DNA of 64,000 nucleotides from an uncultured Alphaproteobacteria bacterium (GTDB taxonomy: Bacteria; Pseudomonadota; Alphaproteobacteria; Methylaequorales; Methylaequoraceae). Shown here piece after piece: positions 36,906 to 58,027 of the stretch. The DNA is taken from the NCBI GenBank assembly GCA_902537615.1, contig CACBBU010000002.1, positions 75,334 through 139,333 of the forward strand, written 5' to 3'. The notes beneath the pieces were generated by a model, which made no database searches, had not been told where the DNA came from, and was given only the letters and a program-made list of their open reading frames with translations. Each line of letters starts with the position of its first letter. Within the stretch, counting starts at the first letter, position 1. Made by a program: the position numbers and the translations under genes.

Positions 36906-39900
36906 ATGTTAAAAGAAATTAACTTTACTAATAAATTAAACGATGGCTCATTTACTAGTAGTCCGCCAGAGATACTTAGCTTTTACTCAGGAAATTCACT
37001 TAAGATAGAAAACTTACCTTCATGGTTACCAAAATCTGATTTTTCTAGAAATAACAGTGACTTAATTGCAACATCTCATGATGGTGATCAGATTATACTT
37101 GTTGATTATTTTACTAATTTTGAATTACCATCATTGTTAACTGAAAACGGTTTACTTTTGAATGGCTCTCTTGTAAGGTCACTAGCTGGTCCCCTAGCTA
37201 AGGGGCAATACGCTCAAGCAACTGATGGTAATGTTCTTTCTATTGGTGAGGTTTCCACTGTTTCTGGTACGGCAAAAGCAACAAGATTAGATGGTACAAC
37301 TACCAATTTAAATGCGGGGGATCCAGTCTTTCAAGGTGATACTATTGAGACTGAAGGTTCAGGAGCTGTAGGTTTAGTTTTTTTAGATAAAACAACACTT
37401 TCTCTATCTGATGGAGGAAAGATGGTTTTAGATGAGTTAGTTTACGATGCAGCAACAGGAACGGGCAGTATAGCTGTTGATATGCTTGAAGGTGCTTTCA
37501 GTTTTGTTAGTGGTGAAATAGCCAAAACCGGACCTGACGCAATGTCAGTTAAAACACCAGTAGCAGTTATAGGTATTAGAGGAACAACTGTTGCTGGAAA
37601 GGCAGCTGTTGAAGGAAATGAAAACAGTTTTACTTTACTGCAAGATGCAGATGGAGGAGTTGGACAAATTGCTGTAAGTAACGATGGAGGCACACAAGTT
37701 TTAGCTCAGGTTGGTGCAACAACAAGTATTTCAAGTTTTACTGCTCCACCACCACCACCAGTAATTTTAACTACAGCACAAATTCAAGCCAATTATGGTA
37801 CTGCACTTAATGTGTTACCCCCAACGCCTGCTGTAGCACCACAGCCACAACCTGCACCACCTCCACAAGAACAAGTTCAGGAAGAACAGGCTCAAGAAGA
37901 AGCTGCTGAAGAGGAAGGTGAAGAAGAAGCCGGTGAAGAACAAGTAACTGAGGAAGGTCCTGCAGAAGAAGAAGGTGAAGGAGAAGGAGAAGAGGGTCCC
38001 CCTGAAGGAGAGGAAGGTCCACCAGTTGGACCTGATGGAGAACCTCTTGCTGAAGGTGAGGGTCCCCCTGAAGGAGAAGAAGGTGGTCCTCCTGAAGGTG
38101 AAGAAGGACCCCCTATTGGACCAGATGGAGAAGTATTAGCTGAAGGAGAAGGGGGTCCACCTCTTGGCCCAGATGGAGAACCGTTACCACCTGGAGAAGG
38201 GGGTCCTCCCGTAGGCCCAGATGGAGAACCATTGCCACCTGGTGAAGGAGGTCCACCTCTTGGCCCAGATGGAGAACCGTTACCACCTGGTGAAGGCGGC
38301 CCACCTCTTGGCCCGGATGGGGAACCATTACCACCTGGAGAAGCTGGCCCTGGTGGCCCTGGAGATTTTGGTCCTGGCGGTCCTGGCGGACCCGGAGATT
38401 TGGGTGGTCCTGGCGGACCATCGCCTGAACAAGAAGAAGTTGCAAGAGAAGCATTTGAAACAGCACTAGCCGATGGGTTAAGTCCAGAGCAAGCTATGGC
38501 AGCAGCTGCAGAAGCCGCTGGTCTTCCAGTTCCTCCTGGAGGCTTTGGACCTGGTGGGCCTGCTGGGCCTGGAGGTTTTGGACCTGGTGGCCCTGGAGAC
38601 TTTGGCCCTGGTGGTCCTGGTGGACCTGGTGGCCCTGGAGACTTTGGCCCTGGTGGCCCCGGAGACTTTGGCCCTGGTGGCCCTGGAGACTTTGGACCTG
38701 GTGGTCCTGGAGATTTTGGACCTGGCGGCCCTGGAGATTTTGGTGATCCTTTTGGTGGTCCTGGTGGATTTGGTGATCCCTTTGCTGGTCCTGGGGATTT
38801 TGGTGATCCTTTTGGTGGTCCAGGTGGCCCTGGTGGACCCGGTGACCCGTTTGGTGGCGGCCCTGATGGATTTGGTGATCCCTTTGGTGGTCCTGGAGGC
38901 CCTGGTGGACCCGGTGATCCGTTTGGTGGCGGCCCTGGTGGATTTGGTGATCCCTTTGGTAGTCCAGGAGGACCGGTTGGTTTAGGCGGCCCTGGTGGTC
39001 CTGGAGATTTTGGACCTGGTGGTCCTGGCGGTTTCGGTGGCCCTGGAGGTCCCGGAGATTTTGGTGGCCCTGGTGGCATGGTACCTGGACAATTTATGGG
39101 TGCTCAACCGCCTGGAACTGCAACATTTGCTCCAGCTGGAGCGTTTGGCTCCCCAATAGTTGGTTTTAGTTCAGGCCCTATTGGAGGTTTTGGCCCTGAT
39201 CCATATGGTGGTCCAATGAGTGGTCCAATGGGTGGTCCTGGAGGATTTGGTGACCCTTTTGGTGGTCCAATGGGAGGACCTGGAGGTTTTGGTGACCCTT
39301 TTGGTGGTCCAATGGGAGGACCTGGAGGTTTTGGTGATCCCTTTGGTGGCCCAATGGGAGGGCCTGGAGGTTTTGGACCTGATCCTTATGGAGGACCTGG
39401 AGGTTTTGGCCCTGATCCATTTGGTGGTCCTATGGGAGGACCCGGAGGTTTTGGTGATCCTTTTGGTGGACCTATGATGGGTGGTACTGAAAATTATGTT
39501 GAACCTATGAATTATTTTTTTGATGATCCTTCTCTATATATGGGTTTTTTCGAACCGGAACTTTTTGAAGTGGAAGAAAGTGGTGGTAGCGGAAGCGGAA
39601 GCGGAAGCGGAAGCGGAAGTGGAAACACTATTACTGGTACTAATAATGTTGACTCTGAAGATAAATCAACATCTACTGATGCATGGAAATTTCTTGGTTA
39701 TAGTGGAAATGATAATTTTAAAGGTGGTAGCGGGAATGATATATTTTTTGGAGGATTAGGAGCCGATGATTTAACTGGTAATGGAGGAAGTGATACCTAT
39801 TTCTTTTCTGATTTTCTTGAGGGTGCTGATACAATTAGGACGTTCAGTGCAGCTGATACTTTAAAATTTGGTTATAATTTTACAAATAATTATTCTCGAT

Positions 39901-40259
39901 CATTAAGCTTTACATCTGATAGTGGTGCAAATGGCTCTGTGTATAATATTGGGGCTAGCAGTGGAATCCTTCCTATTGTTTTTAACTTTACAGCAAATAA
40001 TTCAAATCATAATACATCTGCTGGAGTTGCAAATTTCCTAAGTAATTTTAGAGTTACAACTGATGGAAGCACTGATATATCAACTGTTGAAGATGCTCTT
40101 CTTGTAACTGGAAATGGTGGTACTACAAGTTTATGGGGGTGGCAAAACAGTGCATCTAACGGTACTGTTGAGCAGACTGAGTTAGTTCGTTTAGCTACAC
40201 TTAATAGTTATGATAATGATACTATGGCTGCATCTAATATTGCTATTGGAGTCTTGTAA
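36906..40259 (+). CDS. Large FecR-domain, Gly/Pro-rich, RTX-repeat putative T1SS substrate (1117 aa)
   Basis: No Sec signal; FecR-like region (IGEV..VSG, GDPVFQGD, TPVAVIGIRGT); acidic and G/P repeats; four GGxGxD nonapeptides at 39696-39803. Confidence 0.85.
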   Translation: MLKEINFTNKLNDGSFTSSPPEILSFYSGNSLKIENLPSWLPKSDFSRNNSDLIATSHDGDQIILVDYFTNFELPSLLTENGLLLNGSLVRSLAGPLAKGQYAQATDGNVLSIGEVSTVSGTAKATRLDGTTTNLNAGDPVFQGDTIETEGSGAVGLVFLDKTTLSLSDGGKMVLDELVYDAATGTGSIAVDMLEGAFSFVSGEIAKTGPDAMSVKTPVAVIGIRGTTVAGKAAVEGNENSFTLLQDADGGVGQIAVSNDGGTQVLAQVGATTSISSFTAPPPPPVILTTAQIQANYGTALNVLPPTPAVAPQPQPAPPPQEQVQEEQAQEEAAEEEGEEEAGEEQVTEEGPAEEEGEGEGEEGPPEGEEGPPVGPDGEPLAEGEGPPEGEEGGPPEGEEGPPIGPDGEVLAEGEGGPPLGPDGEPLPPGEGGPPVGPDGEPLPPGEGGPPLGPDGEPLPPGEGGPPLGPDGEPLPPGEAGPGGPGDFGPGGPGGPGDLGGPGGPSPEQEEVAREAFETALADGLSPEQAMAAAAEAAGLPVPPGGFGPGGPAGPGGFGPGGPGDFGPGGPGGPGGPGDFGPGGPGDFGPGGPGDFGPGGPGDFGPGGPGDFGDPFGGPGGFGDPFAGPGDFGDPFGGPGGPGGPGDPFGGGPDGFGDPFGGPGGPGGPGDPFGGGPGGFGDPFGSPGGPVGLGGPGGPGDFGPGGPGGFGGPGGPGDFGGPGGMVPGQFMGAQPPGTATFAPAGAFGSPIVGFSSGPIGGFGPDPYGGPMSGPMGGPGGFGDPFGGPMGGPGGFGDPFGGPMGGPGGFGDPFGGPMGGPGGFGPDPYGGPGGFGPDPFGGPMGGPGGFGDPFGGPMMGGTENYVEPMNYFFDDPSLYMGFFEPELFEVEESGGSGSGSGSGSGSGNTITGTNNVDSEDKSTSTDAWKFLGYSGNDNFKGGSGNDIFFGGLGADDLTGNGGSDTYFFSDFLEGADTIRTFSAADTLKFGYNFTNNYSRSLSFTSDSGANGSVYNIGASSGILPIVFNFTANNSNHNTSAGVANFLSNFRVTTDGSTDISTVEDALLVTGNGGTTSLWGWQNSASNGTVEQTELVRLATLNSYDNDTMAASNIAIGVL
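38151..38342 (+). repeat. Four tandem 48-nt repeats encoding GGPP(L/V)GPDGEPLPPGE
   Basis: Read directly; two degenerate copies lie just upstream. Confidence 0.9.
38540..39480 (+). repeat. Gly/Pro/Phe/Asp low-complexity coding repeats (GPGGPGDF, GGPGGFGDPF, GGPMGGPGGFGDPF)
   Basis: Read directly from the translation; GC-rich but with A/T-biased third codon positions. Confidence 0.9.
39588..39617 (+). repeat. (AGCGGA)x5 encoding a Ser-Gly linker
   Basis: Perfect hexamer tandem repeat, in frame. Confidence 0.9.
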
Positions 40260-40470
40260 ACCATAAAATGATTATGTAATAGTAATTTTTATACTATGTC
40301 TTTTACGTTATTTACTTATTGCTATAACATTTTGTTTTTCAGAACATTTGCATTCTCGTAAATTATTCTTATAATAAAATCTGTATTGACTTTTAAAGTA
40401 TCTGCACAAACAACATTTTAGAAAGTTTTCAACTTAAATTACTAAAGTAAAATCTTGACATTTTAATATA

Positions 40471-40513: not shown

Positions 40514-43213
40514 ATGTACAACACCAAAGTTTTTAACAATTTATCTGAATCAATTTTTGCTGGTAACTCAACAGCAGTTAACAATCTTCCTTCTTGGCTA
40601 TTAAAGTCTGATTTTTCTAGAAACAATACTGACTTAATAGCCACATCTCCAGATGGTGATCAACTTATACTCGTTGACTATTTTACTAATTTTGAATTAC
40701 CAAACTTATATACTATTAATGGACTTCATCTTAAAGGTAATGCTGTAAATTATTTAGCAGGACCGTTAGCAAAGGGGCAATACACTCAAGCTGCTGATGT
40801 TAATATCCTTTCTATTGGTGAGGTATCAACAGTTTCCGGAACTGTAAAATCAACAAGATTAGACGGTACAACAACAAATTTAAATGTAGGAGACCCTGTT
40901 TTTCAAGGAGACACAATTGAGACTGAAGGTTCAGGAGCTGTAGGATTAGTTTTTTTAGATAAAACAACATTTTCTCTCTCTGATGGAGGAAAGATGATTC
41001 TGGATGAGTTGGTTTATGATGCAGCAACGGCAACTGGAAGTATGGTAGTTAATATGGTTGAAGGAGCATTTAGTTTTATAAGTGGTGAAATAGCTAAAAC
41101 TGGACCTGATGCTATGACGCTTGAAACTCCAGTTGTTACAATGGGTATTAGAGGAACAACTGTTGCTGGTAAAGCAGCAGTGGAAGGAAATGAAAATAGT
41201 TTTACCTTACTTCAAGATGCAGATGGTGGAGTTGGACAAATTTCTGTAAGTAATGATGGAGGAACACAAGTTTTAGCTCAGGTGGGAGCTACAACAACTG
41301 TTTCAAGTTTTACTGCAGCACCCCCAGCACCAATAATTTTGTCCGCAGCACAGATTCAAGCTAATTATGGTACTGCACTTAATGTATTACCACCAACTCC
41401 GGCGGTAGCACCACAACCACAAGCTGCTCCTCCCCCTCAAGAAGAAACTCAAGAGGAACAGACTCAAGAAGAGGAGGCTGCAGAAGAAGAAGGTGAAGAA
41501 GAGGGTGGTGAGGAACAAGTGGCAGAGGAAGGTTCTGAAGAAGGAGAAGGTGAGGGTGAAGAAGGTCTACCTGAAGGAGAGGGAGAAGGAGAAGAGGAAG
41601 GAGAAGAGGAAGGAGAAGAGGGTCCACCTGAAGGAGAAGAAGGAGAAATTTCTGATTCTGGTGGGGACTCATTAGCAAGTGATGAAGCAGCAAGTGGACC
41701 TCCAGAGGGTGAAACAGGGTCTGTTACTGAAGAGTCAGGAACATCAGAGGAGCAAGTTGCAGCAGCAGAAGCTTTTGATACAGCACTTGCAGCAGGTGCT
41801 AGTCCAGAGCAAGCTATGGCTGAAGCAGCTGAAGTTGCCGGACTAGAAGGACCAGAGCAGGCTACTTCAATTCAATCAAATAATCCTAATTCTTTATCAA
41901 ACCCAATGTCGGGAAATGCTAACCCAATGATAGCTCCGGTGAACGCTATAATGGCAAGTGGAGCTCCTGCCTATGCGGGAATGATGGGAGTATCAATGGG
42001 TCCAACAGATATGATGAGTGGCCCGGCTGGACCAGCAGCTATGGCAGGACCCTTAATAACAGGTGCAACAGATTTACTTGGAGCGCCTATAGGACCTGCT
42101 TTTGGCGATATATACTCGCAATCTGAAGTTGAAGTAATTCAGGAGTCTTTTTTCTTTGATGATCCAAGTTTGTATAATGTTGATATGGAAGAAGAGGAAC
42201 CAGAAACCACTGAAATTAACTCTTTTTATATTAACGGAACAAGTGACTTTGGAAGAACAATTTCTGATTTTTCTTTGTCTCAAACACTTACAATTAATTT
42301 TACTTTTGATGAACCAGTCTCAACTCACTCTGTAACAAGGTCAAACTTTTATGAATATACTAGCACTGTTGCTACAACATCTTTATCATGGGACTCAAAA
42401 CCATCAACAACAGCACAAATAGTTAATGAAACAGAACCAAATGGTACTTTTGGTTCTGCTCAAGTTATTGCAAGATCAAGATTTAAAATAGCCACAAATT
42501 CCGATGTTGGTGACGATAGTATTCCATGGGTGAAAATACAGGGTGGATACATCAATAACGGCATTGATATTTTTAAGGTGGACCTACAAGCTGGCGAGAC
42601 GTTAACTGTTGATATAGACTATGGTGATTCTTATAGTATAGATTTTAATTCTTATGTAACAATGTGGAATCAAGCCCTATCTTCTATTGTTGCTGAAAAT
42701 GATGATTCTGCTATTTCATTAGGAGGTGCAGGTAGTTCTGGAACAGAGGATTCATATTTTACTTACACTACCAGTACAACAGAGTCATTTTATCTTTTAG
42801 TTGAAGATGCGCCTTATAATAGAAATTCAAGTACAAGAGGTGATTTTGTATTAAATCTTAGTATTTCACCAACAAGTAGTTCTACGGGATTAGGGACAAG
42901 TTCAACCTCGGCTGTGGGAGGTGATAATAAATTACCCTATTTATTTAATTTTACAGAAAACACGAATAATTATAATACAAAGTCATTTAGATCAGATGTC
43001 GTCTCTTCAATAAAATATACTGATTCTACAAGTGGGACGGGCAGTGAAGTTTTTTTGGTTGTAGGTGACGGTACTAATAGTGCTATATGGTTGTGGGATG
43101 ATTTATCTGAAGGATATGGAATATCTACTAACGAACTTACACTTGTAGCAACACTACCAAACTTTGACAATGATACACTTACCGGCTCTGAAATAACATT
43201 TGGTACAATTTAA
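40514..43213 (+). CDS. Second FecR-domain putative T1SS substrate with PPC-like insertion (899 aa)
   Basis: FecR region nearly identical to the 36906 gene; ETEPNGTF..AQ and DIFKVDLQAGETLTVDID (PPC-like); shared C-terminal ELxxxATLxxxDNDT; no RTX nonapeptides. Confidence 0.85.
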   Translation: MYNTKVFNNLSESIFAGNSTAVNNLPSWLLKSDFSRNNTDLIATSPDGDQLILVDYFTNFELPNLYTINGLHLKGNAVNYLAGPLAKGQYTQAADVNILSIGEVSTVSGTVKSTRLDGTTTNLNVGDPVFQGDTIETEGSGAVGLVFLDKTTFSLSDGGKMILDELVYDAATATGSMVVNMVEGAFSFISGEIAKTGPDAMTLETPVVTMGIRGTTVAGKAAVEGNENSFTLLQDADGGVGQISVSNDGGTQVLAQVGATTTVSSFTAAPPAPIILSAAQIQANYGTALNVLPPTPAVAPQPQAAPPPQEETQEEQTQEEEAAEEEGEEEGGEEQVAEEGSEEGEGEGEEGLPEGEGEGEEEGEEEGEEGPPEGEEGEISDSGGDSLASDEAASGPPEGETGSVTEESGTSEEQVAAAEAFDTALAAGASPEQAMAEAAEVAGLEGPEQATSIQSNNPNSLSNPMSGNANPMIAPVNAIMASGAPAYAGMMGVSMGPTDMMSGPAGPAAMAGPLITGATDLLGAPIGPAFGDIYSQSEVEVIQESFFFDDPSLYNVDMEEEEPETTEINSFYINGTSDFGRTISDFSLSQTLTINFTFDEPVSTHSVTRSNFYEYTSTVATTSLSWDSKPSTTAQIVNETEPNGTFGSAQVIARSRFKIATNSDVGDDSIPWVKIQGGYINNGIDIFKVDLQAGETLTVDIDYGDSYSIDFNSYVTMWNQALSSIVAENDDSAISLGGAGSSGTEDSYFTYTTSTTESFYLLVEDAPYNRNSSTRGDFVLNLSISPTSSSTGLGTSSTSAVGGDNKLPYLFNFTENTNNYNTKSFRSDVVSSIKYTDSTSGTGSEVFLVVGDGTNSAIWLWDDLSEGYGISTNELTLVATLPNFDNDTLTGSEITFGTI

Positions 43214-49463: not shown

Positions 49464-51827
49464 CTATTTACTTGTTGCAACGTAAACACCGTCCCAATCT
49501 TTTGGAGGAGGGGAGGTCTTAAATTCATCAATTCTTTGTTTCATTATTTCATAGTATTCATTCATTAAATTATTACAAAGATTTTTTGCCAAATCCATTT
49601 CATTTAAACACTTTTCCCATTCTTGTCTAAAGTAATTTTTTAGGATATTTTTATGCTTTTCTTCTAAAGTTTTAAACTCATTACTTTTTTTAAACTCTGA
49701 ATCACCAGCTAAAGTAAATATTGTTACAGCTTCTTTTTTTCCTTTAACAGCAATCATATCCAATTGTAATGTTGCATATAAATCTTTTACACTTTCGTTA
49801 GTTTCTGGACCAATTACTGTTTTTACACCATAGCTTTTTGATTGCCCCTCAAGTCTAGCAGCTAGATTAACAGAATCACCAAGAACTGAATAATCAAATC
49901 TCTGGTCAGATCCCATATTACCAACAACACACCCACCAGTGTTTAAACCAATACCAATCTTTAACTCTAAATATTTTTTATTTTCAGATTTCGCTTCCTT
50001 TTCTCTTTCAGCATTTAGATCCGCCATTACAGCATGCATTTTGAGAGTAGCATCACAGGCCATTTTTTCATGACCATCAACATCAATTGGAGCATTCCAA
50101 AAAGCCATAATACAATCTCCCATATATTTATCAATCGTGCCATTAACGTTGATAATTTCATTAGTAAGAGGTGTTAAGAATCTATTTATTAATTTAGTTA
50201 AACCTTGTGGATCCGATTTAAAAGATTCTGAAATAGTGGTAAATCCTCTTACATCACAAAATAAAAATGTCATTTTTTTAGTTTCCCCACCTAAAACTAA
50301 TTTATCAGGATCTTCTGCTAGTTGCTCTACCAATGCCGGAGAAAGATATTGTGAAAAAGCACCGCGAATCTGTTTTTTTTCGTTTGCATCTCTTAAATAG
50401 TTGGCAAAAGTGTTCCCAAAATATATTAAAAAAGTAGAAACACCTGCAAAAGTTGGGTCAAATAATGTTTTTTCTTCCAGAAAAAGCTTTAAACTTATAT
50501 AAAAAGCAGTGCTTATAACCGCGACCAATAAAGAAATATTTACAATCGGACCAAACCTAAGTGCTGATATTGTTATAAAGAACCCCAAAAGTATTGTAAA
50601 AATTCCTTCATAAAACTTCATATTTGTTCCAGATTTTAAGAAGGGAGAACCTGAAATTTTCACTTTATTTTTTTCATTTAGAGCCTCTTCTTCAGTCATT
50701 CCATTTTTAATTGCTTTCTTATACGCTATATCAGCATTCTTTGTGGAAGTATAAAATAATATAGCGGAGATTACTGTATCAATCAGATTAGCGTGTATTT
50801 CAACACCAGGCATTCTATCTTCAACAGGTGTAAACCTAATGTCTTTAAGACCTGTTGCTGATGTTCCAAGAATTCCTAACTTTCCCTGAAGTCTCTCTTT
50901 TCCAACTCTTCCTTTGATAATGTCTGCAGCACTGACATAATATCTTTTCTCTTTTTTAATAGAATCAGATTCACCATAATAAATCCAAACCCTTCCATTT
51001 TCATCTGTAGGAATTGCTGCATTACCAATTGCCTTTGTTTGAATTATAATTTCCTCAACACCGTTTATTCCAGTTCTTGTCGCAATACTGTTACCTTGAA
51101 ATGCAACTCTTATCATTTCTAGACCAAGTGTTGGTCTTACAGTTCCAGCAACATCTGAAATTAACGGTACACGTCTTATAATTCCATCTGGTTCTTCGGC
51201 AACAGACACAGTTCCTGCACCAGATGCTGCTTGCTCAAATTCAGTAACATTAGCCAATAATCCAGGATAGGTTATTAACCAATTTTTTGGATTCTTGTTT
51301 TTACCCAAAAAAACTTTAACAGAGGTATCTCTTATATCATCTCGTTCCGCATCACCAGTAACGTCAAGACCAGAGTGACCAATTACAGTCGGAAAGGTTT
51401 TCATAACATCTCTTGCAATAGACTCATTAGACGGAAGTTTCTTAAGAATATCAGCTACTTTTGGATTTCTTTTTTCTAGATCCCTTGCTATTAAAGTTGG
51501 GGATGTTCTGTCCTTTTCAGCAAATAATACATCTAGTCCAAGAACTAGCATACCAGATTCTTTGGACTTTTGAAAAAGCTCAGCTAAAACTGTTCTGGGC
51601 CAAGGCCATTGACCAATCTCTCGAAGTGACGCCTCATCAATATCAACTATTACAGAATAGGTTTGACCATCTGTAGATCTTGGGTATTTTTTTTGAAGTT
51701 GATCAAAATACTTTAGTCTCATTACTTCAACTACTTGCGGGTCAATAATCCTTACTCCACCTAAAATAATGGCCGCAATTATTGAAAGTAATGTAACTAT
51801 GAGTCTAAAACTTAATTTTAATTTCAT
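49464..51827 (-). CDS. CHASE2-domain membrane adenylate cyclase
   Basis: IVDIDEASL..IGQWPWPR, MPGVEIHAN, three TM helices, FCDVRGFT, DKYMGDCIMAFWNAP, GDSVNLAARLEG; ATG at 51827 lies 1 nt after the HlyD stop. Confidence 0.93.
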   Translation of the reverse strand: MKLKLSFRLIVTLLSIIAAIILGGVRIIDPQVVEVMRLKYFDQLQKKYPRSTDGQTYSVIVDIDEASLREIGQWPWPRTVLAELFQKSKESGMLVLGLDVLFAEKDRTSPTLIARDLEKRNPKVADILKKLPSNESIARDVMKTFPTVIGHSGLDVTGDAERDDIRDTSVKVFLGKNKNPKNWLITYPGLLANVTEFEQAASGAGTVSVAEEPDGIIRRVPLISDVAGTVRPTLGLEMIRVAFQGNSIATRTGINGVEEIIIQTKAIGNAAIPTDENGRVWIYYGESDSIKKEKRYYVSAADIIKGRVGKERLQGKLGILGTSATGLKDIRFTPVEDRMPGVEIHANLIDTVISAILFYTSTKNADIAYKKAIKNGMTEEEALNEKNKVKISGSPFLKSGTNMKFYEGIFTILLGFFITISALRFGPIVNISLLVAVISTAFYISLKLFLEEKTLFDPTFAGVSTFLIYFGNTFANYLRDANEKKQIRGAFSQYLSPALVEQLAEDPDKLVLGGETKKMTFLFCDVRGFTTISESFKSDPQGLTKLINRFLTPLTNEIINVNGTIDKYMGDCIMAFWNAPIDVDGHEKMACDATLKMHAVMADLNAEREKEAKSENKKYLELKIGIGLNTGGCVVGNMGSDQRFDYSVLGDSVNLAARLEGQSKSYGVKTVIGPETNESVKDLYATLQLDMIAVKGKKEAVTIFTLAGDSEFKKSNEFKTLEEKHKNILKNYFRQEWEKCLNEMDLAKNLCNNLMNEYYEIMKQRIDEFKTSPPPKDWDGVYVATSK

Positions 51828-51828
51828 T

Positions 51829-53562
51829 TTATGGCTCCGCAAAACTATTACCTAATGTCCTTATTAAAGGATAAATAAAATAGGTAATAAGTTTTCTTTT
51901 ACCAACTCTAAACTTTCCTGAAACCTTCATTCCTGGCATTAGATTAAATCCAGGCGGTGTGTCTTTCAGCTCATTTCCAGTGATTTGCGCTCTTGCTCTG
52001 TAAAAGTTACCGGAGTTTCCATCTACATCCTCATCTACTGTATCAGCAGAAACATAAATAAGTTTTCCTTTCAACTCTCCATGCTTTTGAGCTGGTAAGG
52101 CGTTTAATTGTATTTTAACTGATGTGTCAGGAATTAATTTACTTATATCAGATGGATCAACATCAAAAACAGTAAGTAACTCAACTCCTGTTGGAACAAG
52201 TGTTACTACACTTTTACCTTTGGTTATTACAGCGCCTGAATAAAGAGAATGAAGGTCTAGTACCATTCCGTCAGAAGGTGCCCTTACAATAACATCAGTT
52301 TGTCGCCTTTCCAGTTTCTTCAAGTCCTCTTGCATACTCATACGTTGATCCTCTAAGGAAACAAGTTCGTCATTTATTCCACCAAAAAACTGGCTTGTGT
52401 ATTCCTTTCTATTGGATTTAAGCTCACTAAGTTTATTACTTGTTTTGGTAAATTCCTTTTCTAAAGATAATCTTTTATTTTTTTCAGCTAAGACCTGTGA
52501 TTCAGCAACTAGATCTAAATCAAAAAGTTCTTTTTTTGAATTTTCAAGCTGCTTTTGAATATCCAACTGTTCCTTTACGTATTTTAAATCATCTTCTGTG
52601 GATGATATTTGTTGATCTAGAGATGCTTTTTTGGCTAAGTATTGATCTTTTTTGTCTTTAAAAATTTTATTTTGTCTTTCATCTTTAGGGTCGCTGACAC
52701 TAATACTCGTTCTTAGTAATGATTGCTTTTTTAATCTATCAATTTTTGAATTTATAACACTAAGCTGATAATTAAGTTTCATTCTATCAGCTTTCTGAAG
52801 GGTTGAATCAAAAGTGAGAAGAGCTTCTCCTTTTTTTATGCTTTGTCCTTTTTTAACATAGATATCTTTAACAACTGAATCAAAGTTTGATTGAACTTCA
52901 ACATTCGGAACAATTGTTGTTATTTTTCCTGATGCAGTAATTGTTGTATCTACTTCAGAGATAGATCCCCACAGAATTAAAAAAAAAACTAAAAAAGCAA
53001 AAGAGTATACGGAATATTTTACAGATTTAGGGACAGCTTTAGATTTTATTCTATCAATATCGTCATCAAATTCATCTAATAACTCATTCATCAATTCAGA
53101 ATTAACTTTTTTCTTCTTTTCTTCTTCGGATAATTCTTTTTTATCGTTATCTTCATCAACCTGGCTAGAATCTGAATCAGAACTGAAAGCATCAACTGAC
53201 AGTTTTTCATTAGCATTTCTTGCGTAGCTTGCTAATTGTTGCATCATATTAAAAGCTGTTTGAGGAGAGTTTTTTAGGTAACCTAATAATGCATCTTTAT
53301 CTATTTCTTTAACTACTGCCTCATCAACAGCTCTAGCCATTGCACTTCTAGGTTGTTTATCTATTAAGGCCATTTCACCAAAAAGAGCATTTTTTTCTAA
53401 AATTGAAAGTGTTACATATTCGTCACCATTAAACTTACAAACTTCAATTTTTCCTTTGACAACTTGGTAAGCATAATCACCTACCTCACCCTCTCTAAAT
53501 AGAACATCTCCAGCAGCTAAATTTCTTAATGCGGGTTGTGTAGTTTTTTTCTGTTTACTCAT
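51829..53562 (-). CDS. cNMP-binding domain fused to HlyD-family membrane fusion protein
   Basis: N-terminal LFREGEVG and FGEMALIDKQPRSA; acidic linker; TM helix; RAPSDGMV, LMPGMKVSG, GKRKLITYFIYP. Confidence 0.9.
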   Translation of the reverse strand: MSKQKKTTQPALRNLAAGDVLFREGEVGDYAYQVVKGKIEVCKFNGDEYVTLSILEKNALFGEMALIDKQPRSAMARAVDEAVVKEIDKDALLGYLKNSPQTAFNMMQQLASYARNANEKLSVDAFSSDSDSSQVDEDNDKKELSEEEKKKKVNSELMNELLDEFDDDIDRIKSKAVPKSVKYSVYSFAFLVFFLILWGSISEVDTTITASGKITTIVPNVEVQSNFDSVVKDIYVKKGQSIKKGEALLTFDSTLQKADRMKLNYQLSVINSKIDRLKKQSLLRTSISVSDPKDERQNKIFKDKKDQYLAKKASLDQQISSTEDDLKYVKEQLDIQKQLENSKKELFDLDLVAESQVLAEKNKRLSLEKEFTKTSNKLSELKSNRKEYTSQFFGGINDELVSLEDQRMSMQEDLKKLERRQTDVIVRAPSDGMVLDLHSLYSGAVITKGKSVVTLVPTGVELLTVFDVDPSDISKLIPDTSVKIQLNALPAQKHGELKGKLIYVSADTVDEDVDGNSGNFYRARAQITGNELKDTPPGFNLMPGMKVSGKFRVGKRKLITYFIYPLIRTLGNSFAEP

Positions 53563-53563
53563 T

Positions 53564-55729
53564 TTAAACAGCCTTTTTAAAAATTTTATGTGATGAAGAT
53601 TCGCCTAAAATAGAACTTTGTTTTTTATAAGTTTCACTAAAAAAGCCTGGTTCATTCTTCAAACTTTCAAACGAACCTTGCTGAGAAATTTTCCCATTAT
53701 CTAAAACAAAAATTTTATTACAAAGTCTTAAATGATAAAGCCTATTCGACACAATAACCACAGTTCTTCCTAAAGCAATATCAGGTAAGCCATCATAAAG
53801 TTTAATTTCACTATCTACATCAAATCCACTCATTGCATCATCAAGAATCAATATTCTTGGATTTCTAATTAACGCTCTTGCAATAGCAAATTTTTGTCTT
53901 AAGCCAGTAGAAATATTTGATGCATTTTCTTCTAAAAAAGTCTCATAAGCATCTGGAAATGATTCAATTTCTTCATGAGCAAAAACTTTTTTTGTAGCCC
54001 AAGTAATTCTATCCATTGAAGAGTTTGGCATTGGTCTAGAAATGTTTTCTCTAATTGTTCCAGGAAAGAAATAGCTTTCTGCACCTACTAAAGACACTTG
54101 AGATCTTATGTGACTTAAATCGAGTAATCTTAAGTCTATGTTATCAAGTCCCACAATACCAGATTGCGGTCTATATAAACCTTGAATTAATTTTGCCATT
54201 GTACTCTTACCGCAACCACTTTTCCCAGTGATTCCAACTATTTGTCTTGGATCAATATCTAAATCTATTTCTTTTAGAATTTTCGTTTCATCATCATAAC
54301 CAAACTCAACCTTTTTAAAATTAATTTGTCCCATTAACTGTGGTTTTTGACCTCTAACAGTTGTCTCAGAATTAGCGTCGACAATACCTGAAACGATTTG
54401 TAATGACTGAACTAATTTTCCTATTTCAGTTTTTAAGGTTACCAAATCAATGATTGGTCTAGAAACTCTACCTGCAAGCATATTAAAACCAACTAAAATA
54501 CCAGCCGAAAGACCTCCTGAAAAAACTAAATGTACACCAACAAAAATGACCATTGCTGTCATTAATTGATTGATAGTGGAGGTTATATTGTTTAAAACAG
54601 AAGATCTTTTTTGCATTTCATCAGAAGCAACTATATAATTAGCTTCTATATCCCTCCATTGGTCTTTTAGGCCTGGTTCCAATGCTAAACCCTTAACATT
54701 TTCAATTCCATTAACACAAACTGAAATAAACTCTTGTCTTTGAGCGTCAGCTTTAGCGAGCCCACCCATTGCGTCTCTTTGTTTTTTTGAATAAAACATT
54801 GAAGCAAGCGCACCTAACAAACTAAAAAATAAAACAACCCCAAATAGAAGCGGACTATAAAAAAAAAGAATTGGAACGAAAACTAAGAGACTTATTGAAT
54901 CTAATCCTGTTGAGAGAATTTTTTGAGTTAATAATGTTTTAATTTGACTGATTTGTGAAGTAAATCTTCTAAAACTCAAAGATTCTCTGTGAAATCTTTG
55001 CATGGGTAAACTTACTAATTTTTCAAAAACTCTCACAGATAGTTTTGCTTCAATTTTTTGAGATAAAAAGTCAAGTAAATAAGACTTTAGGTACCCAAGG
55101 ATTCCATTGAAAATATAAGCAACTACAACACCTGAAGTTATTACATATAACGTAGAGTAAGCCTCATAGTTTACAACCTTATCTAAAACTAGCATCATAA
55201 AAACCGCAGGAATAACTGCAAAAATATTAAGAATTAATGCTACAATAACAACTTGGACAACAACTGATTTATTTCTAAATGATTCTCCAATTAACCACCC
55301 AATTTTAAGCTCACTTGTTTCTTCAAAAATCTTTAATTTAGCTTTCAATAGTACTACAGAACCATCCCAGCCTTTACGTAATTCCTTTAAAGATATTTGT
55401 TGAGGTTTTGGATTTGATATACCAGCGTCTAAACAAAGAATAGATTTTTCATCCTCATTCGTAATCGCTCGCAAGGCAATAATATATCTTCCATTTTTTA
55501 GTTTTAATATTTGCTGTTTTTTTGTTAGAAGCTTTAAGAGTTCATTTTCACTTATTTTTGCAGCTTTTGCTTTTAAGTCAAAAGACTTAGCTAGTTCACA
55601 CATTTCTTTTAGAGATAGTTCTCTATCATCTATTTTAAATCTTTCAGGAATATCATTTGGTCCGATATGAATACCCAATTGTCTAGCAACAAGAATTAAT
55701 GATTTTTGAGAACCACGTATAGCTTCCAT
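53564..55729 (-). CDS. HlyB-type T1SS ABC transporter with inactive C39-like domain (degenerate NBD)
   Basis: C39-like region lacks catalytic Cys/His (SQKSL, GRYII); LVLDKVV TMD; GKSGCGKST; ISTGL; ILDDA; SNRL. Confidence 0.9.
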   Translation of the reverse strand: MEAIRGSQKSLILVARQLGIHIGPNDIPERFKIDDRELSLKEMCELAKSFDLKAKAAKISENELLKLLTKKQQILKLKNGRYIIALRAITNEDEKSILCLDAGISNPKPQQISLKELRKGWDGSVVLLKAKLKIFEETSELKIGWLIGESFRNKSVVVQVVIVALILNIFAVIPAVFMMLVLDKVVNYEAYSTLYVITSGVVVAYIFNGILGYLKSYLLDFLSQKIEAKLSVRVFEKLVSLPMQRFHRESLSFRRFTSQISQIKTLLTQKILSTGLDSISLLVFVPILFFYSPLLFGVVLFFSLLGALASMFYSKKQRDAMGGLAKADAQRQEFISVCVNGIENVKGLALEPGLKDQWRDIEANYIVASDEMQKRSSVLNNITSTINQLMTAMVIFVGVHLVFSGGLSAGILVGFNMLAGRVSRPIIDLVTLKTEIGKLVQSLQIVSGIVDANSETTVRGQKPQLMGQINFKKVEFGYDDETKILKEIDLDIDPRQIVGITGKSGCGKSTMAKLIQGLYRPQSGIVGLDNIDLRLLDLSHIRSQVSLVGAESYFFPGTIRENISRPMPNSSMDRITWATKKVFAHEEIESFPDAYETFLEENASNISTGLRQKFAIARALIRNPRILILDDAMSGFDVDSEIKLYDGLPDIALGRTVVIVSNRLYHLRLCNKIFVLDNGKISQQGSFESLKNEPGFFSETYKKQSSILGESSSHKIFKKAV

Positions 55730-55765: not shown

Positions 55766-55801
55766 AAAAAAAACCCCCTGTAAATAATACAGAGGGTTTT
55801 T
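55766..55801 (-). terminator. Rho-independent terminator after the 252-aa gene
   Basis: On + reads AAAAACCC-C-CTGTA-AATAA-TACAG-A-GGGTTTTT; the T-run follows on the minus strand. Confidence 0.8.
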
Positions 55802-55836
55802 AAAAGTTGACGAAGTAAACTTTAGATTAATAGTCC

Positions 55837-56595
55837 TTAGACTACATCGTCAGTTGGATCATCAGGTGGTGGAGGCGGAGCCATTCCGTCGCCATCCATA
55901 TCCGCTCCTGGAGGAGGTCCTTCGGGTCCTTCGGGTCCTGGTCCATGATGTGCACCTGCATCATCCATATGAGAGTGCATTCCTCCCATATCGTCGCCTG
56001 GTGGTCCCATTGGTCCATCTGGTCCTGGTCCCATATCCCCTGGAGGTGGTCCCATTGGTCCATCAGGTCCCATCATTGGATCGCCTGGAGGTGGTCCTCC
56101 TGGATCACCTGGAGGTGGTCCGCCTGCTGGTCCATCTGGTCCAAATAATGGATCTGGTCCACCTGGTCCCATATCCCCTGGAGGTGGTCCCATTGGTCCG
56201 TCTGGTCCTGGTCCCATATCTCCTTCAGGAGGTGGTCCCATTGGTCCATCAGGTCCTGGTCCCATATCCCCTGGAGGTGGTCCATCACCAAATGCGGCAT
56301 CAACACTTTCGCCTGCTGCTTCAAAAGCTTGCATGGCGTCCATACCACTGTCAATAGCTGTGTCAAAACCTTCTTGAGCGGCGCTAGCCATGGTATCAAC
56401 CATTTCTGGAGGAGCACCCATATCAGTCATAGCTGCACCTGCTGCTTCAATTGCTGCGGATGCTGCTGCTGATGGATCAGCTCCGCCTTCAATTGCTGCA
56501 GTGTATGCGTCCTCAGCTGCAGTTCCAGCGGCATCTTCCATGGCATCAATTTGATCTTCAGTCATGCCTTCGGGCATGCCCATTTCTTCGGCCAT
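55837..56595 (-). CDS. Highly acidic Ala-rich then Gly/Pro/Met/Asp-rich protein (252 aa), putative T1SS cargo
   Basis: SD AGAAGGA 7 nt before the ATG; own promoter and terminator; lies between TolC and ABC genes. Confidence 0.8.
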   Translation of the reverse strand: MAEEMGMPEGMTEDQIDAMEDAAGTAAEDAYTAAIEGGADPSAAASAAIEAAGAAMTDMGAPPEMVDTMASAAQEGFDTAIDSGMDAMQAFEAAGESVDAAFGDGPPPGDMGPGPDGPMGPPPEGDMGPGPDGPMGPPPGDMGPGGPDPLFGPDGPAGGPPPGDPGGPPPGDPMMGPDGPMGPPPGDMGPGPDGPMGPPGDDMGGMHSHMDDAGAHHGPGPEGPEGPPPGADMDGDGMAPPPPPDDPTDDVV

Positions 56596-56662
56596 TTTAT
56601 TATCCTTCTATTAAGATTAAATTTTTGCGAGTACTTATTTATTAAGTCAATACAGTAATTTT

Positions 56663-56690
56663 ATTCTACTAAGTTTAAAAAGTTTTTCAA
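56663..56690 (-). promoter_or_regulatory. Sigma-70-type promoter of the 252-aa gene
   Basis: Minus strand TTGAAA-N16-TAGAAT. Confidence 0.6.
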
Positions 56691-56701
56691 CAAAAAATTT
56701 A

Positions 56702-58027
56702 CTATAGTTTTAAATATTGAAAATTCAGAAGACCACATTGATTTAGAAGTTCAAATGAAGATAAAATTAACTGAAATTGAGCATTAACTAAATTTGATTC
56801 TGATTGAGTAAGTTCTTTTTCGGCATCAAGAATGTTTAGAGTTGTACGTGTTCCTACACCCGCCTCTTTAGTTACTCCCTCTACAGCCATCAAATTTGAT
56901 TCTACTGATAATTTTAATGACCCAATACTTGATTTAGTACTTTCAATTTTTTTCCATGTTGATTGAATCTGAAACATTAAATCCAGCTTTTTAGATTCAA
57001 GAGATTTAAAAGTAGAAATTGCTGAATTTTTGGATTTTTCTAAATTATAAAAATTGTGTCCTTTATTAAAAATCGGTAATGAGACAGAGGCGGTAACTTC
57101 ATAACTATCCTTTCTTTCAAGAATTCTAGATGATTTAAGAGACTTGCCAACTGAACCACTAACAGAAAATTCAGGTGCAAAATTTAAACGACTTTTTTTT
57201 ATATCAAACTTAGAATTTTCGTGTACAAATTTAAGTTGAATAAAATCGGGGTTATTTTTTAAACCAATTTCAAGTGATTCTTTAAGAGAAGATGGTATTT
57301 TTGGTATATCACCAAACTTTGACCAATCCTTAGGGTTTGAGTTTGTTATAGTTTCCTCATTGGTATCAAACCAGTTAATTTTTGGCTCTCTTCCAACGAC
57401 AGTTTTAAAATCTGATATTGAAATATCTAAATTATTTTCGGATTCAATTCTCTTTGAGGTTGCTTCAGCTAAACGAGCTTTTGCTTGAAAAACATCAGTT
57501 TTTGTTACATCTCTGAACTCAAATCTTTTTTCAGTTGCTTCTAACTTTTTAATTAAGTTTTCCTCATTTTTTTTTGATACATCAAGTAAAAAATAATCCT
57601 TTAAAACTGTATAATAAGCTTTACTTGCTCTGAATAAAACAGACTGAGTAACAGATTGATCTTTGAGTTGAGAGATTTTAAGATTATTTCTTGATTGTTT
57701 GAGTGTAACCATTTTTTCATAACTCAATGGTTGTGTTAAATCTATATCAAAAGTTGTTGGGCTTAGAGTTGTATCACCGCGATTAGATGTATCAGGAAAA
57801 CTTCGGCTTATATTTCTTCCTTGTGAAGATGAAAACTCTAGAGAAGGGAGAAAATCAGTCTTTGAAATCTGGAGGTCTTTTTTCGCATTTTCAAGATCTT
57901 TTTTGCTTTTTTGAATATCTGGAAAAAAATTATAAGCATCTCTTAAAACATCGCCTAGTTCTTCGGCTTCAGAAAAAGTGGTAAAAAGCAATAGAAATAA
58001 AAGTAAAAGTTTATAACTGCCATTCAT
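56702..58027 (-). CDS. TolC-family type I secretion outer-membrane protein
   Basis: Signal peptide, FLPSLEF, TKTDVFQAKARL, GTRTTLNILDAE. Confidence 0.9.
   Translation of the reverse strand: MNGSYKLLLLFLLLFTTFSEAEELGDVLRDAYNFFPDIQKSKKDLENAKKDLQISKTDFLPSLEFSSSQGRNISRSFPDTSNRGDTTLSPTTFDIDLTQPLSYEKMVTLKQSRNNLKISQLKDQSVTQSVLFRASKAYYTVLKDYFLLDVSKKNEENLIKKLEATEKRFEFRDVTKTDVFQAKARLAEATSKRIESENNLDISISDFKTVVGREPKINWFDTNEETITNSNPKDWSKFGDIPKIPSSLKESLEIGLKNNPDFIQLKFVHENSKFDIKKSRLNFAPEFSVSGSVGKSLKSSRILERKDSYEVTASVSLPIFNKGHNFYNLEKSKNSAISTFKSLESKKLDLMFQIQSTWKKIESTKSSIGSLKLSVESNLMAVEGVTKEAGVGTRTTLNILDAEKELTQSESNLVNAQFQLILSSFELLNQCGLLNFQYLKL

Follow-up and report, generated by a model that had tools for sequence, protein, structure and literature searches.

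The window considered here is a stretch of 64,000 nucleotides (contig CACBBU010000002.1, positions 75,334 to 139,333, assembly GCA_902537615.1) from an uncultured alphaproteobacterium of the Methylaequoraceae, a small-genome, streamlined marine organism. It contains a type I secretion system (T1SS) locus whose genes follow one another on the same strand: a TolC-family outer-membrane factor, a small and extremely acidic protein that we call the cargo, an HlyB-like ATP-binding cassette (ABC) exporter, an HlyD-family adaptor with a cyclic-nucleotide-binding (cNMP) domain and a CHASE2 cyclase. Beyond the cyclase come the genes of two small cNMP-binding proteins, of a membrane protein with DUF1538 and of two P-II-like proteins. 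The features of the locus are listed in Table 1. The composition of the cargo, its conserved parts and its constant neighbours suggest that it is probably the dedicated exported substrate of the adjacent T1SS (TolC, HlyB-like ABC and cNMP-HlyD), and one without repeats-in-toxin (RTX) motifs.

The 252 residues of the cargo include no lysine, arginine, asparagine, cysteine or tryptophan. Five amino acids account for 80% of the protein: 53 glycines (21%), 54 prolines (21%), 35 alanines (14%), 35 aspartates (14%) and 26 methionines (10%). The remainder includes 15 glutamates and 4 histidines, so that 50 acidic residues face no basic one. The protein was ranked against the organism's own 1.23-Mb assembly, represented by 1132 non-overlapping open reading frames (ORFs) of at least 120 amino acids. 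It comes first for low side-chain nitrogen (0.044 versus a median of 0.348), for negative charge, for G+C content and for methionine (10.3% versus 1.9%), and it is the single ORF of the set devoid of lysine and arginine. The gene has a G+C content of 55-59%, compared with 30% for the window. Its codon positions are very uneven, with 80% G+C at position 1 and only 25% at position 3 (GC3), the latter being close to the value of the genome. Since GC3 is only 25%, the G+C spike results from the choice of amino acids in a native gene and horizontal transfer is ruled out as its source.

Three regions can be distinguished in the protein. In an AlphaFold2 model built with an alignment of 18 sequences, the head is made up of four helices arranged as two hairpins, each with the pattern helix-G.(S/D)P..A(F)-helix. 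Residues 103-240 have a predicted local distance difference test score (pLDDT) of about 45-60, which corresponds to disorder, with a slight rise at the extreme C-terminus; about 60% of the cargo is predicted to be disordered. The second region consists of 15-residue units around a PPxGDM core, whose copy number differs among relatives. Tandem Repeats Finder (TRF) describes it as 6.2 degenerate copies of a 45-nt period, and three units with the exact sequence GDMGPGPDGPMGPP are found at residues 109-122, 125-138 and 186-199. The third region, the C-terminal tail, ends in an acidic-then-hydrophobic stretch (DDVV). Several islands of the disordered part are kept among relatives, namely DPLFG, M-H-(S/T)-H-M-D-D-A, DMDGDG and the end DD(V/I)V. 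Searches of Pfam (E <= 0.01) and NCBIfam with the cargo gave no match, which also means that no RTX repeat was detected, and a Foldseek comparison of the model with the PDB returned only generic helical bundles (best E 1.4). The N-terminus (MAEEMGMPEGMTEDQ) is acidic and has no hydrophobic stretch; no Sec/Tat-type N-terminus is apparent by inspection, no dedicated predictor having been run.

Some known protein types can be set aside for the cargo. It is not an RTX protein, as there is no Pfam HemolysinCabind match (GGxGxDxUx) and the repeats have a Pro-rich, 15-residue period. Nor does it have an EF-hand: the candidate loop (DMDGDGMAPPPP) has a proline at position 12 instead of a glutamate, lies in a region predicted to be disordered and produces no Pfam EF-hand match. 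A collagen-like triple helix is likewise rejected, because the glycine spacing of each unit is 3-4-3-2-3 and not strictly G-X-Y, and the model is disordered. The preliminary description of this DNA, made from the letters and a list of ORFs, had reported the five missing amino acids, three repeat units, a His cluster and a DxDGDG-type motif. The residue counts confirm the former and all of the motifs were located in the protein. It had also stated that the protein has no RTX repeat and no Sec signal, with which the lack of Pfam/NCBIfam matches and of a hydrophobic N-terminus agrees.

A homologue search, which the same description had proposed as a check, recovered relatives throughout the taxonomic family with a fixed TolC-cargo-ABC synteny. 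The protein search found 54 metagenomic relatives, and the gene is present in 26 of the 36 other genomes of the family and in essentially none elsewhere in a class-wide sample. Wherever flanking sequence is present, the order is TolC, cargo, ABC and cNMP-HlyD; this holds for about 18 distinct related loci, which represent at least 12 genera of the family. The relatives range from about 200 to 405 residues according to their number of repeats, and lysine and arginine are both zero in 17 of 18 of them, while asparagine varies from 0 to 16 and cysteine from 0 to 5. Their heads belong to two homologous subtypes, A and the Cys-containing B (4-5 cysteines), which have a common tail. Genomes carry A, B or both in tandem, in which case each copy has its own terminator.

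The pattern of substitutions indicates that the gene is genuine and under purifying selection. Pairwise dN/dS ratios in the head are 0.04-0.3, the synonymous sites being saturated. For the final 46 codons, the comparison with the closest relative (L002a) shows 11 synonymous and no non-synonymous differences, that between two tandem paralogues of one contig 10 and 1, and that with another genus 13 and 4. Because these differences are mostly synonymous, the C-terminal tail is maintained by selection and not by gene conversion.

Some peculiarities of the locus and of its relatives deserve mention. The low-complexity DNA opens further reading frames, antisense ones included, which were judged to be artefacts. 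In one related contig, tandem cargo genes have heads of types A and B (L002:8616-9770 and L002:10001-10957). The cargo of the window is collinear with A, yet its last ~46 codons (55837-55975) are nearer to those of B (4 versus 11 synonymous differences), a pattern that would fit the loss of a B copy through recombination between the nearly identical tails, and also a gene conversion over a short stretch. Finally, assemblies often end, carry runs of N or show frameshifts within the Pro/Gly/Asp/Met repeats (L006, L009, L011, L013, L014 and L016), and the same breaks occur in metagenome proteins, including P0001, P0004, P0006, P0017 and P0026. The gene is thus often truncated or mis-called in metagenome-assembled genomes and, because short-read assemblies regularly break or shift frame inside it, is likely under-reported.

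The head belongs to a wider superfamily. No Pfam family covers this module, and a head profile of 98 positions, searched against 1.84 billion representative proteins, matched 149 clusters at E <= 1e-3, 60 of them at E <= 1e-10. Among the members are proteins that carry four or five such modules, as well as FecR/RTX giants that resemble the 1117-residue neighbour encoded in the window. Most members combine 0-2% K+R with about 20% D+E, many have DDIV, DDVV, DEVV, VDVV or TDVI as their last residues, and HMDDA recurs in distant members. Among the four distant members with informative contigs (those of P0072, P0100 and P0068 were too short), three are linked to a T1SS: P0143 comes directly after a C39-ABC and HlyD pair and lies beside an ABC and cNMP-HlyD pair, P0084 and its tandem paralogue are upstream of an ABC and cNMP-HlyD pair, and P0127 adjoins a TolC gene. 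The fourth, P0058, has no T1SS genes within 8 kb. A 2.5-Mb genome from another alphaproteobacterial family also has this gene order, with a cargo, an ABC and a cNMP-HlyD beside a divergently oriented TolC, and this cargo contains MAHMDDAMSDHMDH and ends in DMPDDVG. Since the distant members and the genome of this other family have similar neighbours, the association of this type of cargo with cNMP-HlyD systems is old and recurrent.

Other occurrences of the module are more isolated. A stand-alone head paralogue of 114 residues (L046:1107-1448; genome G012, contig C2) has ordinary lysine and arginine contents, no tail and no T1SS genes beside it, and similar ORFs are found in many genomes of its genus. 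The genome of the window contains, outside the window itself, a weak second family member (C19:16054-16674, minus strand; head profile E 0.002) that ends in ...KDDEIS. It has a normal AT-rich composition and runs off the contig end, and there is no T1SS on the side that is present. Lastly, the metagenomic protein P0164 (493 residues, with a signal peptide) combines true EF-hands (Pfam EF-hand_5, E 1e-8), the motif MHQHMEEHH and several head modules, which hints that EF-hands, His/Met motifs and head modules may travel together in extracellular proteins.

The secretion machinery has its own particularities. The best PDB match of the ABC partner is HlyB at full length, including its C39-like domain. 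This N-terminal domain has no cysteine at the catalytic position and the N-terminus of the protein reads MEAIRGSQKSL. The Walker A motif and the transmembrane domains are kept, but the other ATPase motifs are degenerate: Walker B is ILILDDA, the signature is ISTGLRQ and the H-loop is SNR. The same replacements characterize the 11 of 11 orthologues compared (L002, L004, L005, L019-L022, L024, L025, L027 and L028), with LDDA for LDEA, SNR for the H-loop His and (I/L)STGLRQ for LSGGQ. Two ABC proteins encoded beside cNMP-HlyD genes in unrelated contigs also have a Walker B without Glu (LDDC and IDGA), while LDEP is found in a neighbouring ABC whose partner is a plain HlyD. The orthologue of genome G399 has LDEP as well, yet its signature is degenerate. 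Two other kinds of export system can be rejected. A cargo with a double-glycine leader, of the type handled by peptidase-containing ABC transporters, is incompatible with an exporter whose C39 domain lacks the catalytic cysteine, and the conserved DAAG of the cargo is inside helix 1 of the folded head. A LapA-type adhesin is contradicted by the lack of a retention_LapA match in the cargo and of PF06035 (LapG, Peptidase_C93) in the genome, which is 79% complete.

Promoters and terminators are sequence predictions in all that follows. Two promoter-like sites precede the cargo gene, one of which overlaps a conserved upstream element. The stretch that contains the other (TTGAAA-N16-TAGAAT) is not conserved in relatives, so that it makes a weaker candidate; it is probably the site seen in the preliminary description, which had credited the gene with its own promoter, Shine-Dalgarno sequence and terminator ahead of the ABC gene. 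Predicted signals of these three kinds were indeed found and their layout is kept in related loci. In particular, folding of 10 other intergenic regions, taken from 9 related loci, placed a hairpin followed by a T-run at the same position in all 10, although the sequences of the stems differ.

Table 1 Features of the cargo locus and related elements in the window
Feature	Position	Strand	Details
Cargo gene	55837..56595	-	252 aa, 24 kDa, without K/R, net charge about -50
TolC-family outer-membrane factor	56702..58027	-	441 aa; Pfam OEP E 4.6e-48; TIGR01844 208 bits; directly upstream of the cargo gene in all related loci
HlyB-type ABC exporter	53564..55729	-	721 aa; PDB HlyB 7sgr E 7e-102 over residues 11-705; TIGR01846 494 bits
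HlyD-family adaptor with N-terminal cyclic-nucleotide-binding domain	51829..53562	-	577 aa; Pfam cNMP_binding E 2.8e-19 and HlyD_3; TIGR01843 218 bits, above cut-off
CHASE2-adenylate/guanylate cyclase	49464..51842	-	Next gene in the same direction; Pfam CHASE2 E 1.7e-47, Guanylate_cyc E 8.4e-18; kept in relatives
Upstream element CTGTATTGACTT-N8-AAGTACTCGCA (also written CTGTATTGACTT..AAGTAxTCGCAC)	56626..56655	-	Kept in 13/14 aligned TolC-cargo spacers
Promoter-like TTGACT-N18-AAAAAT	56650-56621	-	-35-like TTGACT within the conserved upstream element
Second promoter-like site TTGAAA-N16-TAGAAT	56663..56690	-	Promoter scan
Shine-Dalgarno AAGGA	56603..56607	-	7 nt ahead of ATG; AAGGA/AAAGGA in all aligned loci
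Predicted terminator/attenuator in the cargo-ABC spacer	55769..55801	-	14-bp hairpin, then T-run
Head domain, residues 13-102	56290..56559	-	Four helices, pLDDT 81-92
Disordered Pro/Gly/Asp/Met repeat region, residues 103-200	55996..56289	-	pLDDT 45-60; TRF period 45
DPLFG conserved island within the repeat region	56140-56154	-	
Conserved C-terminal ~50 residues	55840..55989	-	Proposed uncleaved secretion signal; codon comparison
MHSHMDDAGAHH, residues 206-217	55945-55980	-	
DMDGDG, residues 232-237	55885-55902	-	
C-terminal end PPPPPDDPTDDVV	55840-55878	-	
Second copy of the upstream element, CTGTATTGACTTTTAAAGTATCTGCAC	40381..40407	+	Some 107 nt upstream of the called start of the FecR-type cargo (899 aa) in the other T1SS cluster

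The second copy of the upstream element connects the locus with another T1SS cluster of the window, which encodes two giant FecR-type cargos (36906-40259 and 40514-43213, plus strand), cargo 1 and cargo 2. An 11-mer of the element has just two occurrences in the 1.23-Mb genome, before the cargo gene and before cargo 2. The chance expectation for the 11-mer alone is about 5, and the case for a shared element rests on its second block and its position; together these suggest that the cargo gene and that of cargo 2 are co-regulated. The called start of the 899-residue gene has no obvious Shine-Dalgarno sequence. Both giants have weak matches to the LapA retention module (NF033682, E about 7e-6, below cut-off). 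Their BLASTP similarity with the cargo is not significant after composition correction (E 0.04-1.3) and the head profile has a marginal match to residues 514-541 of cargo 1 (E 0.06). Nevertheless, a giant resembling cargo 1, P0190, matches the head profile at E 4e-4 in the large search, so that the motif common to the head and to these giants is probably real but weak. Elsewhere in the same genome, FliL/FliN/FliP/FliR-like flagellar genes, recognized by eye, and two Ala-rich, K/R-poor flagellins (C4:10857-15178 and C17:4024-5642) indicate that the organism is probably motile, unlike SAR11.

Several scenarios may explain these observations. The cargo is probably a substrate dedicated to the adjacent T1SS, because its genetic linkage to the exporter is fixed, it has no signal peptide, its body is acidic, disordered and rich in Gly and Asp, and its C-terminal ~50 residues are under selection. 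That it is secreted by the neighbouring system had already been proposed in the preliminary description, and the conserved linkage and layout make it very probable. In that case, the cargo would be made in excess of the pump, with the terminator working as an attenuator like the one that separates hlyA from hlyB. Its tail would stay unfolded and would be recognized through an uncleaved C-terminal signal (HMDDA...DDVV), and the protein would be threaded C-terminus first via ABC/HlyD/TolC, to end up on the cell surface or in the medium. Cyclic AMP (cAMP) or cyclic GMP (cGMP) produced by the neighbouring CHASE2 cyclase could gate this export by acting on the adaptor. The most speculative steps are those outside the cell, where the cargo, a flexible polyanion, might bind cations (Ca2+/Mg2+ and possibly, via Met/His/Asp, Cu or other metals) or form a charged coat, and where the helical head might be an interaction or anchoring module.

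Some observations fit this scenario poorly. The extracellular role of the cargo is read purely from its composition. The loss of the catalytic Glu, the H-loop His and the canonical LSGGQ in all orthologues of the ABC partner makes it doubtful how, or even whether, this protein powers export. RTX cargo is what ABC exporters with C39-like domains are known for, and the present protein has no such repeats. The cysteines of the subtype-B paralogues are unusual among T1SS substrates. Moreover, the folded head at the N-terminus might be so stable that it cannot pass through TolC, which would lead to retention at the surface and not to release.

A variant of the export scenario goes further. The cargo without Lys and Arg, the ABC with altered ATPase motifs and the cNMP adaptor might represent a separate branch of T1SS, in which it is mainly the membrane potential (inside negative) that drives the polyanion out, ATP is only bound or has a gating role, and cAMP or cGMP opens the conduit. 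The family-wide exclusion of lysine and arginine together with the altered ATPase motifs allows this possibility, which is nonetheless a rather unlikely one. If it were true, even one Lys or Arg would halt the chain on its way out, which would account for the absolute exclusion of positive charge throughout the superfamily of cargos.

Among the alternative functions, one that is compatible with export by the T1SS is that the cargo is a secreted metal-binding protein, which would use its Met/His residues and the Asp residues of the DxDxDG loop to take up extracellular Cu, other trace metals or Ca. Its methionine content is the highest of the genome, different genera retain the PPxGDM core of the repeats, the H/M motif is under purifying selection and occurs in another family as MAHMDDAMSDHMDH, and the related P0164 joins true EF-hands to a His/Met motif. 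Yet the cargo has only one His/Met cluster, which is found within the C-terminal 50 residues, the expected site of a secretion signal, the Pro at position 12 prevents the DMDGDG loop from being taken for an EF-hand, the methionines are spaced as M-x7-M and not as the classical MxxM or MxM, and the gene cluster includes no metal-homeostasis genes. Since both the His/Met cluster and DxDxDG sit in the conserved C-terminal ~50 residues, the expected place of a T1SS signal, they may belong to the export signal rather than to metal sites. Metal binding as the function of the cargo is conceivable, though on balance it is not likely.

The preliminary description favored an abundant surface or matrix protein with a low nitrogen cost, secreted from an operon like rsaA-rsaD-rsaE. 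The cargo would then resemble a surface-layer (S-layer) or matrix protein whose composition was selected to save nitrogen. Its side-chain nitrogen is the lowest of the 1132 ORFs, it has a predicted promoter region and terminator of its own, and a streamlined marine genome makes nitrogen thrift plausible. But selection for low nitrogen is not a family-wide trait, as asparagine and cysteine vary freely among the relatives while lysine and arginine stay at zero. For this reason nitrogen is not the conserved variable; what the family conserves is the exclusion of positive charge, with low nitrogen as an apparent by-product. The implied likeness to an S-layer does not hold either, given that the cargo is a mere 24 kDa, is mostly disordered and has neither RTX repeats nor a lattice-forming domain. 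Hence a nitrogen-saving surface protein appears improbable.

It is still harder to defend the idea that the cargo is not exported at all and acts in the cytoplasm, where it would assist or regulate either the pump or the cyclase, for instance as a pseudo-substrate that plugs or tunes the ATPase-degenerate ABC/cNMP-HlyD complex. The degenerate motifs of the ABC partner could be read in this way, and the stand-alone head paralogue with normal lysine and arginine, away from any T1SS in one genus, suggests that the head can work inside cells. Nevertheless, the pump keeps a full TolC/HlyD/ABC set with a conserved Walker A and transmembrane domains, the tail shows all of the compositional hallmarks of T1SS cargo, copy number and repeat length are variable, as in surface or secreted proteins, and tandem cargo paralogues exist, so that a cytoplasmic role is very unlikely. 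Lastly, a spurious ORF or a G+C-rich fragment gained horizontally, as the sharp G+C spike and the other frames opened by low-complexity sequence, antisense among them, might suggest, is refuted by the strong purifying selection in the cargo frame, the host-like GC3 and the family-wide conservation with fixed synteny, and its probability is negligible.

Export by the adjacent T1SS remains the preferred explanation and has some general implications. T1SS are usually thought of as ATP-driven and devoted to RTX-type proteins, while here a bacterial family keeps a T1SS with a likely cargo that is free of RTX repeats and of positive charge. The second-messenger sensor on the adaptor and the altered ATPase motifs further set this system apart from the usual picture. 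If the cargo is exported and abundant, the cells release or wear a polyanionic, Met-rich protein. Such a protein would be invisible to standard tryptic metaproteomics, since the lack of lysine and arginine means that it yields no tryptic peptides. The system also offers a simple test case for the role of charge in T1SS transit and for the control of secretion by cyclic nucleotides.

The cargo family appears to be undescribed: no curated family or paper covering it was found, and a literature search for cNMP-binding T1SS adaptors or for this family returned no description. Comparisons with characterized systems are nevertheless informative. The closest overall arrangement is that of the Escherichia coli hlyCABD/TolC system (group 2 T1SS). 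The ABC partner aligns to full-length HlyB, including the non-catalytic C39-like domain, the adaptor belongs to the HlyD family and the cargo gene directly precedes the ABC gene, from which a predicted hairpin separates it; in the E. coli operon, an attenuator lies between hlyA and hlyB. Like HlyA, the cargo is acidic, would have an uncleaved C-terminal region and would presumably be exported C-terminus first. In contrast to the E. coli system, it is devoid of RTX nonapeptides and of lysine and lacks an acyltransferase partner, and it is small and mostly disordered, while its adaptor has a cNMP-binding domain and its ABC has lost the catalytic Glu, the H-loop His and LSGGQ.

A more distant resemblance concerns the periplasmic metal sponges of the SilE/PcoE type, which are disordered, acidic proteins with HxxM/MxxH motifs, Sec signals and many copies of the motif, encoded in metal-resistance operons. 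The MHSHM of the cargo contains overlapping MxxH and HxxM, but it is a single motif in a T1SS context and no homology between these proteins was detected. For the cNMP domain, the nearest precedent in a protein or peptide ABC exporter is Nostoc HetC, a peptidase-containing exporter whose N-terminal cNMP-type domain binds ppGpp (guanosine tetraphosphate) in vitro and whose peptidase and ATPase are catalytically active (PMC10986499). However, this domain is on the ABC protein in HetC and on the adaptor in the present system, where the peptidase-like domain also lacks the cysteine.

The analogy with the rsaA-rsaD-rsaE operon of Caulobacter, drawn in the preliminary description, fits as far as the layout is concerned, since the cargo has a predicted transcription unit of its own beside the exporter genes (ABC and membrane fusion protein). 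RsaA and the cargo are also both acidic and Cys-free and have a C-terminal signal, which is only proposed for the cargo. Yet RsaA is a large, lattice-forming RTX protein (the traits of RTX S-layer proteins are summarized in PMC3034196), whereas the cargo is small, RTX-free and predicted to be disordered outside of its 90-residue head. The nearest functional analogues are the proteins TRP47, TRP120 and TRP32 of another alphaproteobacterium, Ehrlichia chaffeensis, which are acidic, disordered, tandem-repeat T1SS substrates without canonical RTX repeats (PMC3417381). The latter are host-directed effectors of an intracellular pathogen, are not free of lysine and arginine and have no sequence relationship with the cargo, whose family comes from free-living marine plankton.

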